Below are positions 3,776 to 35,513 of a DNA stretch of 36,541 bases, piece by piece. The DNA is from a virus (taxonomy: Duplodnaviria; Heunggongvirae; Uroviricota; Caudoviricetes), in the IMG/VR virus record IMGVR_UViG_648276647_000007; one strand, given 5' to 3'. The number at the start of each line of letters is the position of its first letter. Position 1 is the stretch's first letter. The position numbers and the translations under genes were made by a program. A model generated the notes under the pieces. That model was not told where the DNA came from and searched no databases. It saw only the letters and a list, made by a program, of their open reading frames with translations.

Positions 3776-4231
3776 GTGAACCTACCACAAGATGGCATCA
3801 AACTGCATCGCGGTAACTTCATCGCTATCGGCCAGCAGATCCAGCCTTATCTGGAGAACGGAAAATGCTTTCGCATGGTGCTTAAACCGTGGCGTGAGAA
3901 ACGCAGTCTTTCCCAGAATGCACTCAGCCACATGTGGTACAGCGAAATCAGTGAATACCTCATCAGCAGGGGGAAATCGTTCGCTACCGCAGCATGGGTA
4001 AAAGATGCTCTCAAACACACATACCTCGGTTATGAAACCAAGGACCTGGTTGATGTCGTAACCGGCGAAATCACTACTATCCAGTCGTTACGCCATACCT
4101 CCGATCTCGATACCGGAGAGATGTATGTCTTCCTGTGTAAGGTTGAAGCCTGGGCGGTGAATATTGGCTGCCACCTGACTATTCCGCAGAGCTGCGAGTT
4201 CCAGCTGCTGCGCGACAAGCAGGAGGCGTAA
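3776..4231 (+). CDS. ninB: NinB/YbcN-family recombination protein
   Basis: 151 aa, GTG start preceded by GGAGG; position and size match the DLP12-type nin region (ybcN). Homology is from recall, not alignment. Confidence 0.65.
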
Positions 4232-6493: not shown

Positions 6494-6956
6494 TCCTCAG
6501 CGTAAAGCCTTCCTCGATATGTTGGCGTGGTCAGAAGGAACGGATAACGGGCGACAACCGACACGTAACCACGGTTATGATGTTATTGTTGGCGGCGAAC
6601 TGTTTACTGATTACTCCGATCACCCTCGCAAACTTGTCACGCTACACCCCAAACTCAAATCAACAGCCGCCGGACGTTATCAGCTTCTTTCACGCTGGTG
6701 GGATGCTTACCGTAAACAGCTTGGTTTGAAAGACTTCTCCCCCAAAAGCCAGGACGCAGTGGCATTACAGCAGATTAAAGAGCGTGGTGCTTTACCGATG
6801 ATTGATCGCGGTGATATCCGTCAGGCAATCGACCGTTGCAGCAATATCTGGGCTTCACTGCCGGGCGCTGGTTATGGTCAGTTCGAGCATAAGGCTGACA
6901 GCCTGATTGCAAAATTCAAAGAAGCTGGCGGAACGCTCAGAGAGAGTGAGGTATGA
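6480..6956 (+). CDS. R: Endolysin R (lambda-type lytic transglycosylase)
   Basis: 158 aa; near-identical to my recollection of lambda R ([20 protein letters not shown]...[21 protein letters not shown]...). Confidence 0.9.
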
Positions 6957-7405
6957 GCAGAATAACCGCGATTATCTCCGCTCTGGTTATCTGCGTCATC
7001 GTCTGCCTTTCATGGGCGGTTAATCATTACCGCGATAACGCGATTACCTACAAAGCCCAGCGCGACAAAAATGCCAGAGAACTGACGCTGGCGAACGCGG
7101 CAATTACTGACATACAGATGCGTCAGCGTGATGTTGCTGCGCTCGATGCAAAATACACGAAGGAGTTAGCTGATGCGAAAGCTGAAAATGATGCTCTGCG
7201 TGATGATGTTGCCGCTGGTCGTCGTCGGTTGCACATCAAAGCAGTCTGTCAGTCAGTGCGTGAAGCCACCACCGCCTCCGGCGTGGATAATGCAGCCTCC
7301 CCCCGACTGGCAGACACCGCTGAACGGGATTATTTCACCCTCAGAGAGAGGCTGATCACTATGCAAAAACAACTGGAAGGAACCCAGAAGTATATTAATG
7401 AGTAG
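6953..7405 (+). CDS. Rz: Spanin inner-membrane subunit Rz (i-spanin)
   Basis: 150 aa with N-terminal TM segment and coiled-coil body, start overlapping the R stop; lambda Rz-like. Confidence 0.85.
7173..7355 (+). CDS. Rz1: Spanin outer-membrane lipoprotein subunit Rz1 (o-spanin), embedded in Rz in the +1 frame
   Basis: 60 aa; lipobox LVVVGC and proline-rich [15 protein letters not shown] segment as in lambda Rz1; wholly inside Rz. Confidence 0.8.
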
Positions 7406-7445
7406 TGCAGATAGAGCTGCCCATATCGATGGGCAACTCATGCAA

Positions 7446-7739
7446 TTATTGTGAGCAATACACACGCGCTTCCAGCGGAGTATAAATGCCTAAAGTAATA
7501 AAACCGAGCAATCCATTTACGAATGTTTGCTGGGTTTCTGTTTTAACAACATTTTCTGCACCACCACAAATTTTTGCTGCATCGACAGTTTTCTTCTGCC
7601 CAATTCCCGAAACGAAGAAATGATGGGTGATGGTTTCCTTTGGTGTTACTGCTGTAGGTTTGTTTCCAACAGTAAACGTCTGTTGAGCACATCCTGTAAT
7701 AAGCATTGCCAGAGCGGCAGAAAACAACATTTTTTTCAT
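7446..7739 (-). CDS. bor: Bor outer-membrane lipoprotein (serum-resistance factor)
   Basis: 97 aa from MKKM (track ORF extends further 5'); lipobox LITGC; near-identical to my recollection of lambda Bor. Confidence 0.9.
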   Translation of the reverse strand: MKKMLFSAALAMLITGCAQQTFTVGNKPTAVTPKETITHHFFVSGIGQKKTVDAAKICGGAENVVKTETQQTFVNGLLGFITLGIYTPLEARVYCSQ

Positions 7740-8219
7740 CTTATTATCCTGCATTGTTAAAAACGGCAGAATCCTATGTGACAACAATTAAACGATAGTT
7801 AAATGGATTGATGAAAATTAAAACTACACAGGTGGGCTCAGACTATTGGAGGAAGTTGGGGACACTCAGAATCCTGTGGAATGAAATAAACCGGTCTATC
7901 CGTCCATTACCCTTTTAGCTGCGCTGTATCGTCGCCGTATTCCCGCATTAACCATGACCGTAGCCCGACGGGGAATTCCTTCTGCGTGAGTGTGCGGGAA
8001 TAATTAAAAACGATGCACACCGGGTTTTTACCGCGTTAATGATTCGCGGGTTTATCCCGGTGCGATGGTGGAAGAAACAGGAAGCTGTATTACAGAAAGT
8101 GCTACTACTGTATCCCGATGCGATGTATGTAATGTGAGTCAGATAATGGCACAGGATGTGGTGATGTGGCAGTCTGGAACACAGGATATATTGTCAGAAT
8201 AAGACCCGTAGGAATAAAA

Positions 8220-8546
8220 ATGAAAAGACGCCTTTTACTACTTTTTCTGTTATCTGTCCTGGCAGTGGGATGCTCGCAGCAAAAAGCTGATGAGCCCCGG
8301 CAATTAGTGACGGTGTATCCACGATATCCGGAATATGCTGCAGCAAATTATATCAAGGGGCTGGTTGAGGTTAAGTTCGATATTGGTGCTGATGGGACTG
8401 TGACACGGATCGTTTTTCTCCGCTCAGAGCCTCATAATTTGTTTCGTGATGAAGTGGTGAAGGCCATGGCGAAATGGCGATTTGAAAAGAATCGCCCCTG
8501 TCAGGGAGTGAAGAGACAATTTATCTTTACGCCGTCACGTCCTTGA
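8220..8546 (+). CDS. Small lipoprotein with TonB C-terminal-like domain
   Basis: 108 aa from MKRRLLLLFLLSVLAVGC (lipobox), then a YP.YP...A...G.V.V.F.I..DG.V......S......F...V..A...W.F pattern typical of TonB_C/TolA-like folds. Track ORF 8166-8546 starts upstream with no signal peptide. Confidence 0.5.
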   Translation: MKRRLLLLFLLSVLAVGCSQQKADEPRQLVTVYPRYPEYAAANYIKGLVEVKFDIGADGTVTRIVFLRSEPHNLFRDEVVKAMAKWRFEKNRPCQGVKRQFIFTPSRP

Positions 8547-8638
8547 TGCTTCCAGGTAGAGAGGGGCTGGAAGCAGGAGAAAAATGAAAGAGCCAGCGGT
8601 TATATTTTTGTCATGGCTGACGAGGAATGATGGAAGAA

Positions 8639-8662
8639 GGCGTTGTATGCCACACAACGCCT
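8639..8662. terminator. Hairpin ggcgttgt-atgccac-acaacgcc between convergent genes
   Basis: Perfect 8-bp stem followed by T-rich sequence on the + strand; separates the TonB-C-like gene from the minus-strand small genes. Confidence 0.45.
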
Positions 8663-8668
8663 CACTGT

Positions 8669-8848
8669 TCATTTCTTCTTTTTCTCTGGTGGAACCCGAT
8701 GAATAAGAGTTGCACTGGTTTCCGATGAGATGGCGATATACTCGGGCAAAGTATGCTGGCAGTTTTCCAACTGGTCAAAAATACCTGCTCTCGTCTGTTG
8801 CAATGCCTGCAGCATGCGGCGGCAATGCGCCTTGCTTTTACTAACCAT
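8669..8848 (-). CDS. Hypothetical small protein (59 aa)
   Basis: ATG at 8848-8846 preceded on the minus strand by a strong RBS (gaggaaggaaag). The longer track ORF 8669-9022 would overlap the next gene, so the internal start is preferred. Confidence 0.4.
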   Translation of the reverse strand: MVSKSKAHCRRMLQALQQTRAGIFDQLENCQHTLPEYIAISSETSATLIHRVPPEKKKK

Positions 8849-8909
8849 CTTTCCTTCCTCTATCAGTCGCTGCGTGAACTCATCATGGAATACCAGGTAA
8901 ATGCGGATG

Positions 8910-9161
8910 TTATCGGTTTTGGCTACGCAGCATAGTACAAAACGGACAGGTGCATCCCGGGACGGGGGAGGCGTCACATGTCCCTGTGATGGTTGTTCCG
9001 GGTAATGTACTGTGTGGGGCATAAAAATGTCCGATAATTTTACTTTCTACCGCAGTTAGTTGATTCGTTGGTCCTGGTAGCACATTGGGCGAGGATTTAA
9101 ATGCCAGGCAACTGAAGGATGATGTCGCAAGGGAGATAGCGAGAATATTTCTGATTTTCAT
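8910..9161 (-). CDS. Hypothetical small secreted cysteine-containing protein (83 aa)
   Basis: Start MKIRNILAISLATSSFSCLA (signal-peptide-like) preceded by GAGG; mature part has a CDASPVPGCTCPFC cluster. Confidence 0.4.
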   Translation of the reverse strand: MKIRNILAISLATSSFSCLAFKSSPNVLPGPTNQLTAVESKIIGHFYAPHSTLPGTTITGTCDASPVPGCTCPFCTMLRSQNR

Positions 9162-9309
9162 TTGATGATGCCTCTGTGTGAAATGACGGTAAACGACGCA
9201 CTTGTGCCGGCACATAATAGCAAGCACCATAATAGATCAGATTCGATTCTTGCTGTAAGTGATAATTATTCTCGTTTTCGGGTCCTTTCCGTCGATCCAA
9301 CAGGTTACG

Positions 9310-9321
9310 GGGCGGCGACCT
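9310..9321 (+). other. cos: cos site: cosN cohesive-end sequence GGGCGGCGACCT (flanking cosQ/cosB expected)
   Basis: Exact lambda 12-nt cohesive end, preceded by ...caggttacg and followed by cgcgggttttcgctatttatgaaaattttccggtttaaggcg, as at the lambda genome junction; Nu1 starts about 190 bp downstream. Confidence 0.85.
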
Positions 9322-9498
9322 CGCGGGTTTTCGCTATTTATGAAAATTTTCCGGTTTAAGGCGTTTCCGTTCTTCTTCGCCGTAACTTAATGTTTTTATT
9401 TAAAACACTCCCTGAAAAGAAAGGAAACGACAGGTGCTGAAAACGGGCTTTTTGGCCTCTGTCGTTTCCTTTCTCTGTTTTTGTCCGTGGAATGAACA

Positions 9499-10018
9499 AT
9501 GGAAGTCAACAAAAAGCAGCTGGCTGACATTTTCGGCGCGAGTATCCGTACTATTCAGAACTGGCAGGAGCAGGGAATGCCCGTTCTGCGAGGCGGTGGG
9601 AAGGGTAATGAGGTGCTTTATGACTCTGCCGACGTCATAAAATGGTATGCCGAAAGGGATGCTGAAATTGAGAACGAAAAGCTGCGCCGGGAGGTTGAAG
9701 AACTGCGACAGGCCAGCGAGACAGATCTCCAGCCAGGGACTATTGAGTACGAACGCCATCGACTTACGCGTGCGCAGGCCGACGCACAGGAGCTGAAAAA
9801 TGCCAGAGACTCCGCTGAAGTGGTGGAAACCGCATTCTGTACTTTCGTGCTGTCGCGGATCGCAGGTGAAATTGCCAGTATTCTCGACGGGATCCCCCTG
9901 TCGGTGCAGCGGCGTTTTCCGGAACTGGAAAACCGACATGTTGATTTCCTGAAACGGGATATCATCAAAGCCATGAACAAAGCAGCCGCGCTGGATGAAC
10001 TGATACCGGGGTTGCTGA

Positions 10019-33077: not shown

Positions 33078-33901
33078 CTTTCTTCCCTCTGCACCGCTGA
33101 CGGTCGATGAGCCACAAAAGGGCGTTCATCGTCAGTAATAATGCTTTCTTCCGAGCCGTTAAGTGTGACATGGCGCAGTACGCCGCTAAAAGCCAGCTCT
33201 AGGTTCTCGGCTGTAAAAGTGGTGTCTGTCGGCCCGCTTGCCAGGACGGTGCCTTTGACCATGACCGTATAATCGCAAAATGTCGTGACGGATCCGAGAT
33301 TGTGTGTTGAGACAAGCATCGTTTTGCCTTCCGCGCGTAACTCCCTCAACAGGCTGATGATTTTGGCTTCGGTTTTCACATCAACGCCAGTAAAAGGTTC
33401 ATCCAGCAGGATCACATCACCCTGCTGTGCAATCGCTCTCGCCAGAAAGACGCGTTTCTTTTGTCCACCGGAAAGCTCGCCGATTTGTCGATGGCGAAAA
33501 TTCACCATATCGACACGTTCCAGCGCATCGGTGACAATTTGACGATCCCTCTTTTTGGCGATACGCAACATACCCATATGCCCATAGCGGCCCATCATCA
33601 CCACATCTTCCACCAGTACAGGAAATGACCAGTCAACATCTTCTGACTGAGGGACGTAGGCAACCAGGTTTTTCTGTAACGCCTGTCGCGTGGGAATACC
33701 CAGAACAGATATCTTTCCGCTGGTCAGACGCACAAATCCCATAATCGCTTTAAACAACGTCGATTTTCCGGAACCGTTTACCCCAACCAGAGCGGCAATA
33801 GATCCACTTGGTACTGTGAAGGATGCATCGCGCAGTGCTGTGTGCCCGTTACGCCAGGTGACAGTAACATCATTAACGACAATGCCTGCAGATTGCATCA
33901 T
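33074..33901 (-). CDS. sitB: Mn/Fe ABC transporter ATP-binding protein SitB
   Basis: 275 aa; Walker [13 protein letters not shown] signature LSGGQ, Walker B ILLDEP. Confidence 0.85.
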
Positions 33902-34815
33902 TATTTCTCCCTTTTCCCAGCTTTAATTCCCTGTACCAGCGTACTGGTAGTAACCTTAAGAAGGTCGATATACGTCGGTACCGGGCCGTTTTCTGTGCTC
34001 AGGGAATCGACATAGAGCACACCGCCGTAGTGTGCGCCGGTTTCACGCGCAACCTGACGCGCTGGTTTATCGGAAATCGTACTCTCGCTAAAGACTGCCG
34101 GGATATGATTTTTCTTAACTATATCAACAACCTTACGTACCTGCTGCGGTGTTCCTTGTTGATCGGCATTAATCGGCCACAGATAAAGCTCTTTTAGCCC
34201 CAAATCGCGTGCGAGATAAGAAAAAGCCCCTTCACTGGTGACCATCCATCGCTGATTCTCAGGGAGTTCCGTAATCTGCTTACGCAGGGGGGCAAGGATT
34301 TGGGTAATCTTGGCTTTATAAGTATCGGCATTGCGTTGGTAGGTTTGTGCATTTGCCGGATCGTATTTTATCAACGCATCACGAATATTATCGACGTAAA
34401 TCAGAGCATTATCTGGCGACATCCATGCATGGGGGTTAGGTTTGCCCTCATAGGGTCCTTCGGTGATCCCTACAGGCGTCACACCCGAAGAGACAATTAC
34501 TTCTGGAACCCCATTGAGATGCTGGTAAAAGCGTTGGAACCACAATTCCAGATTCATACCATTGGCAAGAATCAGTTGTGCCCCCTGCGCACGTTTAATA
34601 TCGCCAGGGGTAGGCTGATACTCATGAATTTCTGCACCAGGCTTGGTTATGGATGAGACTTCTGCAGCATCTCCCGCCACGTTTTTGGCCATATCCGCGA
34701 TGATGGTAAATGTTGTAATGACCTTGAATTTTTCAGTTGCACTTGCCTGAAATGCGATCGAGCAGGTGAGTGCGAGCCCCCCCAAGAGCATGGTTACTTT
34801 TTTTATCGAGTGCAT
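33901..34815 (-). CDS. sitA: Periplasmic Mn/Fe-binding protein SitA (TroA/cluster-9 substrate-binding protein)
   Basis: 304 aa with signal peptide; first gene of the operon. Sit/Yfe/Mnt family by motif recall; exact orthologue name unverified. Confidence 0.8.
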
Positions 34816-34888: not shown

Positions 34889-34909
34889 AATGAAAATGAT
34901 TATCATTAG
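34889..34909 (-). promoter_or_regulatory. Candidate Fur box (aaaatgattatcattagc) upstream of sitA
   Basis: 13 of 14 match to the AATGATAATCATT core of the Fur consensus GATAATGATAATCATTATC. Confidence 0.5.
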
Positions 34910-35513
34910 CAGCTTTGAGGCCCAAAACAGGGATTAGGTTGTTTCCTGCTGGCGACGCGTTATTGAGGAAAAAAGTAAGGCAGCTAGTAGGCTTTGAAAT
35001 AACGTTTTGCGGTTGGCTGATGCAATTTCGAGAGTGCATGTATTGAATGATTTCTAGCCGTTACTGATTTTCGTATTTTTTGTATGGGAGGATTTGCACC
35101 TCCCCCCACCGAGCCTCCATGACTTTACTCCACTGTCTCTAGGGCTGCTGTGTGCCAGGAGCGGAAGCAGGGGGGCCAGAGACTCCTTAAAAGTTGATAG
35201 CTCGTTTTGCAGGGAGACTTACACGGTAAGCGTTATTCCGAAGAGCTTAAAATTGAAGCAGTCAAACGGGTTGTTGAGCGTGTTTATGCGCTGCCATCTG
35301 ATTAATCGACGGAAGCAGTTCCGTTTGGTCTATGATGCAGTTGTCCGGCAGGCGCTCTGTGACGCAAAAGAACGATAGGAGTAGCATTGAAGTGAACGAG
35401 GTTATGCTTGTCTTATATTATCCTCTATTTTAAAAACATCAGCTGGTTGTGTAAGAGTTTTTATTGTTTTATCTTGTTGACTTTGCTTTTATGAAAACAG
35501 AGTGATTGATACA

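Follow-up and report, generated by a model that had tools for sequence, protein, structure and literature searches.

The window analysed here is a stretch of 36,541 nucleotides (IMG/VR virus record IMGVR_UViG_648276647_000007) that corresponds to a lambdoid prophage of the phage 21 type. An earlier note on this DNA had proposed two small minus-strand genes next to cos, at 8669-8848 and 8910-9161, and open reading frames (ORFs) with exactly these coordinates are present in the ORF list, encoding 59 and 83 amino acids (aa) respectively. The 83-aa ORF is situated in the interval from Rz/bor to cos, runs antisense to the late operon, and has no counterpart in lambda by tblastn; it is therefore a moron-type insert, in keeping with the position suggested for it in that note. 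Phage 21 (OL657228), a founding model phage, matches the interval 8550-9300 with 100% identity at its right end, and the same sequence recurs unchanged in the prophages of E. coli Nissle 1917, of LF82 (phage Perceval) and of numerous further strains. At ≥95% identity the interval is carried by 1224 of 5426 complete E. coli genomes (23%), including probiotic and pathogenic reference strains. We consider that the 83-aa gene is a lysogenic-conversion moron belonging to an enterobacterial family that is linked to the Zur regulon, with a probability of roughly 0.7, an estimate that leaves aside whether the protein binds zinc.

On the comparative evidence it is in our view practically certain that a genuine, conserved gene is encoded by the 83-aa ORF. 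When 5.8 billion proteins were searched, 22 relatives came to light, in Salmonella, Citrobacter and Klebsiella, and most of them have exactly 83 aa and 55-77% identity. With a profile run against 1.84 billion cluster representatives the family grew to about 25 representatives (i.e. clustered at 50% identity), the E values ranging from 1e-44 to 1e-6 and the identity falling to about 27%. The lengths are nearly all 79-86 aa, and seven other genera are represented (Salmonella, Citrobacter, Klebsiella, Enterobacter, Serratia, Pantoea and Buttiauxella), where family members in the wider genera are all labelled 'hypothetical protein'. Codon-level comparison with seven homologues gave pairwise ratios of non-synonymous to synonymous substitution (dN/dS) of 0.06-0.39, mostly 0.1-0.2; differences at the third codon position are 2-5 times those at the first or second, and synonymous sites are saturated against the distant members. 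Homology to the Klebsiella and Salmonella loci at the level of DNA is confined to 9169-8908, i.e. from the ribosome binding site to the stop codon. This fixes the start of the 83-aa gene, and indicates that the gene moves as a unit. Two longer minus-strand models were rejected. The start at 9230 (giving 106 aa) lies outside the conserved block, and its ATG is changed to CTG in one E. coli haplotype (L013), while a 117-aa model would overlap the 83-aa gene out of frame.

Within E. coli the 83-aa ORF is unbroken in all eight haplotypes that were chosen by DNA similarity, while both neighbouring ORFs break. Metagenome collections were scanned with a degenerate DNA pattern, and the ORF is unbroken in each of 149 further copies found there and on viral contigs, although this is partly by construction because the sample was selected through the 83-aa gene. 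A scan of genome contigs with a close alignment gave three loci only. The same comparisons bear on the annotated plus-strand ORFs, 8753-8935 and 8584-8706, which could alternatively be true genes at the tail of a late or TonB_C transcript. Both are annotated in phage 21 (CPT_21_74, CPT_21_75), there is a RefSeq entry (WP_000881610) and a PHROG family (3744) made up of the annotated ORFs themselves, and the codon-usage log-likelihood against the long genes of the window is slightly positive for the plus ORF 8753-8935 (+0.11) and slightly negative for the 83-aa gene (-0.09). That test does not discriminate, however, because the real 83-aa gene scores negative. The ORF at 8753-8935 is broken in five of the eight haplotypes (in three of them G8888T creates a stop codon, and in two there is a frameshift) and is truncated in 54 of the 149 metagenomic and viral copies (about 36%). 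Its polymorphic sites comprise no synonymous, seven non-synonymous and one nonsense change, and it has no homologues outside E. coli; the ORF at 8584-8706 crosses a terminator-like hairpin. From the truncations and the polymorphism counts we conclude that the plus ORF is not a gene, and that the 59-aa ORF behaves neutrally. The earlier note had named conservation of the plus-strand frame as the observation that would tell against its own model, and the outcome went against the plus ORF. The plus-strand reading is refuted already at the level of conservation, and we give it almost no credence. The features of the locus are collected in Table 1.

Table 1. Features of the right end of the prophage around the 83-aa gene, in coordinates of the window.
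Feature	Coordinates	Strand	Remarks
Rz/Rz1	6953-7405	+	
bor/iss	7446-7739	-	
TonB C-terminal-domain lipoprotein	8220-8546	+	neighbouring moron, convergent with the minus-strand unit
GC-rich hairpin, 12 bp	8637-8663		between the TonB_C gene and the minus-strand unit, 5 nt after the 59-aa stop codon
Minus-strand unit (59-aa and 83-aa ORFs)	8669-9161	-	
59-aa ORF	8669-8848	-	follows the 83-aa gene; lineage-restricted, with no support for a conserved gene
60-aa ORF	8753-8935	+	annotated in the phage 21 record and by PGAP; not accepted as a gene
83-aa coding sequence	8910-9161	-	precursor of a small Cys4 protein, predicted to be exported by Sec (mature form about 63 aa); based on homologues, dN/dS and limits of DNA homology
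C-terminal Cys4 motif	8925-8984	-	residues 60-79; C62, C70, C72, C75
Signal peptide (predicted)	9102-9161	-	residues 1-20; basic n-region, hydrophobic h-region; predicted cleavage A20/F21
Shine-Dalgarno GAGG	9171-9174	-	9 nt 5′ of the ATG; GGAG/GAGG-like sites at similar spacing in homologous loci
Candidate extended -10	9214-9222	-	inferred by reading the sequence; not reported by the consensus scanner
Fur-box-like palindrome	9260-9274		12/14 of the 7-1-7 Fur motif; beside cosQ
cosQ	9280-9286		
cos nick	9309/9310		
nu1	9499 onward	+	
Terminase A	10019 onward	+	

The encoded protein begins MKIRNILAISLATSSFSCLA/FK and contains CDASPVPGCTCPFC, and both the signal peptide and the cysteine cluster attributed to it in the earlier note are present. 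In an alignment of 27 diverse members A20 and F21 are each conserved at ≥90%, and the signal peptide of the family ends A-x-A/F (ALA/F). We infer that the precursor would be exported by Sec and cut by signal peptidase I after Ala20, leaving a periplasmic protein of about 63 residues. Most relatives have Ala or Gly in place of the cysteine at position 18, and the S-F-S before it does not fit the lipobox [LVI][ASTVI][GAS]C, so the protein is not a lipoprotein. At the other end of the chain is the four-cysteine motif (GTCDASPVPGCTCPFCTMLR), in which C62, G69, C70 and C72 are invariant among the 27 members while C75, G60, P66, L78 and R79 are conserved at ≥90%. The family motif is GTCxAxPVxGCxCxFCxxLR, or in general form G-[TRS]-C-x-A-x-P-[VLI]-x-G-C-x-C-x-[FYLW]-C-x-x-L-R, to which the protein of the window conforms. 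A helix-prone E..I..FY segment that is common to the family lies N-terminal to the motif, so that the mature protein might comprise one helix followed by a C-terminal four-cysteine knot. Neither the protein nor alignments of its family matched anything in Pfam, NCBIfam or the sequences of the PDB, and no similarity to a known inhibitor family was found; the protein falls in none of the named families tested. A description of the family was not found in the literature, in a limited search that is not proof of novelty.

We note that two long, low-complexity, eukaryote-like proteins (P0058 and P0060, of 627 and 611 aa) contain 4-5 tandem copies of P[IL]PGCNCPKCT[NE]LR, and that their N-terminus looks ubiquitin-like by eye. 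The repeats resemble the C-terminal motif of the family but have three cysteines each, and may reflect either convergence or a shared mini-domain.

Comparison of the loci at which the relatives reside very probably links the family to the Zur regulon. The consensus Zur box of E. coli is GAAATGTTATA-N-TATAACATTTC, and pliG is a member of the regulon (PMC4219657). Loci were scanned for the core TGTTAT-N3-ATAACA, scored out of 12, and Zur boxes were found at the loci of relatives in eight lineages. The core is perfect (12/12) upstream of the gene in Buttiauxella (at -36) and in the metagenomic lineage L028 (at -89), and the P0050 lineage has cores of 12/12 and 11/12 there. It scores 11/12 in the aztD-linked Enterobacter/Klebsiella lineage and in C. 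koseri (-39), and 10/12 in Citrobacter and Serratia (about -40). In Salmonella a 12/12 core lies 50 nt upstream of pliG, which itself precedes the 83-aa homologue by 95 nt. As background, six unrelated matches to the core occur in 95 kb, and zigA in L028 has its own perfect double Zur box, which serves as a positive control.

The same gene recurs in unrelated contexts, i.e. it is mobile, and zinc-homeostasis genes often adjoin it. On the Klebsiella plasmid its neighbours are a fur-family gene and a COG0523/cobW gene, while in L028 it lies directly downstream of zigA (701 bits, against a cut-off of 600). In Enterobacter/Klebsiella it adjoins aztD-aztC-aztB-aztA, with hemB- and pyrC-like genes nearby; the assignments of the ZigA, AztD and AztC neighbours all exceed curated cut-offs. 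In Pantoea it sits inside a cluster of the order thrS2-cam-folE2-dksA2-[gene]-cobW-zur-cysS2, and clusters of this type (ThrRS/Cam/FolE2/DksA/COG0523/CysRS) are described as Zur-regulated (PMC2770081). The Citrobacter gene adjoins fecIR and a TonB-dependent receptor. In S. enterica subspecies salamae, arizonae and diarizonae the order is pliG (PDB 4dy3, E = 2e-57), the 83-aa homologue, a bor homologue and an omptin gene. From the Zur boxes and the zinc-related neighbours of the relatives it follows with high probability that the family is part of the response to zinc starvation. This connection was not foreseen in the earlier note, where exclusion or interaction with the host had been suggested as functions; the Zur link points to metal stress or nutritional immunity rather than to exclusion of other phages, while interaction with the host persists as a rival reading that is weighed below.

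Two of these loci have further points of interest. In Salmonella (L007 3454-4252; also L020, L021 and L141) a perfect Zur box is followed in turn by pliG, the 83-aa homologue, the bor homologue and the omptin gene, and the PDB name of Salmonella PliG is 'Gifsy-1 prophage protein'. The set looks like a prophage-derived envelope-defence cluster under the control of zinc. The Klebsiella plasmid (CP024459; L004 1536-4252) has a 54-bp cos remnant at 3809-3862 that is 83% identical to 9304-9357 of the window, which marks its descent from a phage and suggests that a copy of the phage type was inserted into a zinc-regulon locus or took its place.

We propose that the phage captured a copy of a gene of the Zur response and uncoupled it from its Zur operator, so that it would now be a self-contained moron between the lysis genes and the bor and TonB_C morons on one side and cos on the other, antisense to late transcription. 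It is probably a metal-stress or host-defence gene carried for the host, and whether zinc or defence is the correct reading it is a gene of lysogenic conversion and not of the phage cycle. The four thiolates might bind Zn(II) in a metallothionein-like site, and the protein could then help to capture zinc in the periplasm, or to pass it on, while the metal is being withheld by the host. Binding of Zn(II) is the most likely single activity, but we advance it tentatively. The likeness to metallothioneins lies in the CxC/CxxC spacing, the very short polypeptide and the zinc link. Bacterial metallothioneins such as SmtA are, however, cytoplasmic and induced by an excess of metal and not by limitation; the 83-aa family has only four cysteines, and no homology to them was detected.

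The setting next to aztDCBA in one member of the family recalls ZinT, AztD and the cyanobacterial ZepA (PMC10957091), exported proteins that are induced on zinc limitation and encoded next to the genes of zinc ABC (ATP-binding cassette) transporters or COG0523 chaperones. No homology to these proteins was detected. They are of 200-400 residues with His/Asp/Glu zinc ligands, whereas the 83-aa family has about 63 mature residues, four cysteines and no conserved histidine cluster. It is possible, though we think it doubtful, that the family is an unrecognised class of tiny periplasmic Cys4 zinc binders in the Zur-controlled scavenging system of the Enterobacterales, captured by a phage in a Zur-free form that protects lysogens. 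If this were true, roughly one in four E. coli strains, Nissle 1917, LF82 and ST131 among them, would be armed against withholding of zinc by the host, and a Cys4 site binding zinc in the periplasm would be an unusual chemical solution. The family is in any case a new small candidate, predicted to be exported, in the enterobacterial response to zinc starvation, a pathway central to nutritional immunity.

PliG (E. coli ycgK; PDB 4dy3/4dy5) provides the most instructive comparison. Like the 83-aa protein (for which export is predicted) it is small and Sec-exported, it is associated with prophages in Salmonella, and it belongs to the Zur regulon (PMC4219657) and lies immediately upstream of the Salmonella 83-aa homologue behind the perfect Zur box. 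By contrast, there is no sequence similarity between the two, and mature PliG has 111 residues, no Cys4 motif and a known biochemical activity. The comparison lends itself to a different account of the 83-aa protein, in which it would be a disulfide-locked periplasmic or secreted mini-protein that shields the lysogen from the innate immunity of the host or from competitors, acting for example as inhibitor or decoy and having no part in the handling of zinc. Zur control of the relatives would then use low zinc as a signal of the host, as for PliG, and the 83-aa protein would be a PliG-like envelope factor; this comes close to the host-interaction function that had been suggested at the outset. 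Four conserved cysteines in a protein with predicted export would suit two disulfides, the Salmonella gene follows pliG directly and is itself followed by the bor homologue and omptin, all envelope defences, and the phage 21 copy is a neighbour of bor/iss. Yet most of the other contexts are of zinc uptake or metallochaperones (zigA, aztDCBA, zur, folE2/dksA2) and not of defence, there is no similarity to known inhibitor families, and the data suggest no target. We therefore think this account rather unlikely, and continue to prefer a lysogenic-conversion gene from a Zur-linked family.

A number of observations weigh against the preferred reading at one level or another. As to the chemistry, four cysteines in the oxidising periplasm more often form two disulfides than a metal site. 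AlphaFold2 models were poor, with a predicted local distance difference test (pLDDT) score of 50 for 19 sequences and 59 for 27 sequences, and therefore give no structural support. PliG is Zur-regulated yet inhibits lysozyme, so that Zur control is no proof that a protein handles zinc (PMC4219657). As to the gene itself, the skew in the polymorphism within E. coli is only mild, with five synonymous, five non-synonymous and no nonsense sites. Frameshifted copies are found in some assemblies (P0003, P0004, P0006, P0022 and P0040), giving chimeric products whose reading shifts from the 83-aa frame to the overlapping 117-aa one and in some cases returns (e.g. ...PEQPSQGHVTPP...); these may be frameshifted copies or assembly errors, and could indicate occasional decay of the 83-aa gene. 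The expression table for LF82 (PMC9928086) goes from the TonB fragment to Nu1 with nothing listed in between, although the 83-aa ORF has no values there because it was unannotated in that transcriptome study. As to regulation, the Klebsiella P0045 type and the Enterobacter P0043 type have no Zur box within 300 nt. There is no match to the Zur core of 10/12 or better anywhere in the window, and a structure-based pattern for Zur (TGWNAYRWTATAWYRTNWCA), allowing up to three mismatches, found none near the 83-aa gene. Zinc control can therefore not be claimed for the phage copy. Lastly, a promoter region had been proposed just left of cos, and a consensus promoter scan gave none that was usable for the unit.

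The only candidate promoter element is an extended -10 sequence (TGCTATTAT) that was recognised by eye. It is unchanged in divergent E. coli haplotypes, while the flanking positions 9227 and 9230 vary. Further upstream is the Fur-box-like palindrome (TGATAATTATTCTCG), which raises the alternative that the phage copy is regulated by iron, with Fur bound at 9260-9274 repressing a leftward promoter by cos, so that the gene would be an iron-limitation moron in the manner of sitABCD. The window has three matches to the 7-1-7 Fur motif where 0.08 would be expected, and the other two overlap at 34891-34911, 76-96 nt upstream of sitA (33901-34815, minus strand), where they act as an internal positive control; sitABCD is carried by the same prophage and has Fur boxes. 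Furthermore, the site scores 14/14 in another E. coli prophage (L017; TGATAATAATTATCA, about 3866-3880) in which the 83-aa gene is present as a copy of 71% identity. However, the homologous palindrome is equally perfect beside cosQ in lambda (TGATAATCATTATCA; NC_001416 48446-48460, L026), which has no 83-aa gene, so that we assign the palindrome to the cos region and not to the gene. The only plausible -10 sequence is about 40-55 nt downstream of it, a greater distance than is typical of Fur operators, and a connection between cosQ and a Fur box was not found in the literature searched. The palindrome is possibly an operator of the 83-aa gene, but on balance iron control is unlikely. We note that lambdoid phages have this Fur-like palindrome in common, at a distance of some 6-13 bp to the left of cosQ.

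The 59-aa ORF differs from the 83-aa gene in almost every respect, and it is probably not a conserved gene. It has no homologues beyond near-identical copies in E. coli and no match in Pfam or NCBIfam, and its PHROG match is to the family of the same annotated ORF. Its polymorphic sites (two synonymous, five non-synonymous and no nonsense) are about neutral. In two of the eight haplotypes (L013/L032) it is shortened to 24 aa by a 1-nt insertion behind codon 6. This frameshifted form is common, since a 48-aa remnant is on record on 486 contigs, and it leaves the 83-aa gene intact. We have nevertheless considered an operon of two moron genes, one for each minus-strand ORF, in which the 59-aa product would be young and specific to phages of E. 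coli. The ATG is preceded by a strong Shine-Dalgarno sequence (GGAAGGAAAG), as the earlier note had observed, the ORF stops 5 nt short of the hairpin, and it is intact in 144 of the 149 metagenomic and viral copies and altered in five. It is sometimes called by PGAP (WP_000253883), and the corresponding slot of a related E. coli prophage is occupied by a genuine small gene, DUF3950, with the N-terminus MSSKNK. But the truncation and polymorphism just described, variants that change the C-terminus by slippage in poly-A, and the ending of homology with other genera at the 83-aa stop codon make a two-gene operon quite improbable. With its strong ribosome binding site and its end so close to the hairpin the 59-aa ORF may be translated, but it is dispensable. 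The proposal of two genes thus fails on the conservation that its own author had chosen as the measure. Most likely the region is the 3′ untranslated part of the 83-aa transcript, which would end at the hairpin.

The A-rich run (GAGAAAAAGAAGAAATGA) that ends the 59-aa ORF (8669-8690) changes in length in three of the 149 copies. The resulting products are of 61, 101 and 102 aa, and in two of the three the ORF is joined to the sequence that follows it; such changes look like slippage where the sequence is not under constraint. The first residues, MVSKSK (8831-8848), resemble MSSKNK of the DUF3950 (YlcI/YnfO) gene that occupies the same slot in L017 (4644-4835). Only these six residues are alike, and assignment of the ORF to DUF3950 was rejected as there is no match to PF13132 (Pfam, E ≤ 1). 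The likeness may be a relic of the start of a replaced gene, or a coincidence.

The hairpin has a calculated minimum free energy of -23.3 kcal/mol, with z = -4.1 for the minus strand and -3.5 for the plus strand. It was not called in a scan for terminators, where its T-run was poor and no canonical terminator was found for the unit; it is likely a transcriptional stop with a weak U-tract. The direction of transcription toward bor given in the earlier note is correct as to orientation, but the hairpin and the convergent TonB_C gene intervene before bor would be reached. An Rfam scan of 7400-9600 gave chance microRNA-like matches only.

Overlapping frames had been expected to make the gene models uncertain, and the conflicting annotation of the interval bears this out. 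The curated phage 21 record has the two plus-strand ORFs, another phage record has the 117-aa minus-strand ORF, and that of Perceval leaves the interval without annotation. The call made by the Prokaryotic Genome Annotation Pipeline (PGAP) varies between genomes, being a plus-strand ORF of 60, 45 or 40 aa or the 59-aa ORF on the minus strand. Identical or near-identical intervals are treated by it in five ways (L002, L032-L037), the fifth having no other call, single-nucleotide polymorphisms flip the call, and the 83-aa ORF is never called. The 83-aa ORF is absent from every annotated phage and RefSeq record inspected, including those of PGAP and the curated phage 21 record, and the genome paper of phage 21 does not discuss the ORFs of this interval. 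The sole gene of this 700-bp interval with evolutionary support is therefore missing from RefSeq and the curated phage record, where unsupported ORFs stand instead. This gap in the annotation of a classic phage, together with the prevalence of the gene and the unforeseen link to Zur, gives it an interest beyond that of a routine hypothetical ORF. Overall the original observation is partly confirmed, with one real gene, one unsupported ORF and a competing plus-strand model that is refuted.

Similarity to lambda ORFs of the p78/p79 type had also been anticipated; none was found on comparison with lambda, and its interval 46.7-48.5 kb gave no tblastn match to the 83-, 59- or 60-aa products. The window aligned to lambda only at bor (7400-7793), over a short stretch at 7917-8027 and in the last 56 bp before cos (9254-9309). 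A DNA search with 8550-9300 returned only E. coli copies and a 45-bp match to cos in HK225. The slot between Rz and cos is shared by a number of morons (bor/iss, the TonB_C lipoprotein and the YlcI/YnfO DUF3950 genes of the DLP12/Qin type), which are small, variable among related phages, mostly antisense to late transcription and read independently of it, as the 83-aa gene would be. The 83-aa gene is unrelated to these in sequence, and differs in having chromosomal, non-phage relatives with Zur boxes. In L017 the 83-aa copy lies beside a different neighbour. The phage morons around the gene in the window (TonB_C and bor, with sitABCD farther away in the same prophage) have to do with iron, manganese and serum resistance and not with zinc. 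The product of the TonB_C moron (Pfam TonB_C, E = 7e-13, with a match also to NCBIfam tonB_Cterm) has a lipoprotein-type signal, LAVGC, and lacks the N-terminal part of TonB; it might, for example, disturb the uptake of phages or colicins that depends on TonB. In the identical LF82 prophage Perceval this TonB_C fragment is a lysogen-expressed moron, with expression 8-fold over the prophage background (PMC9928086).

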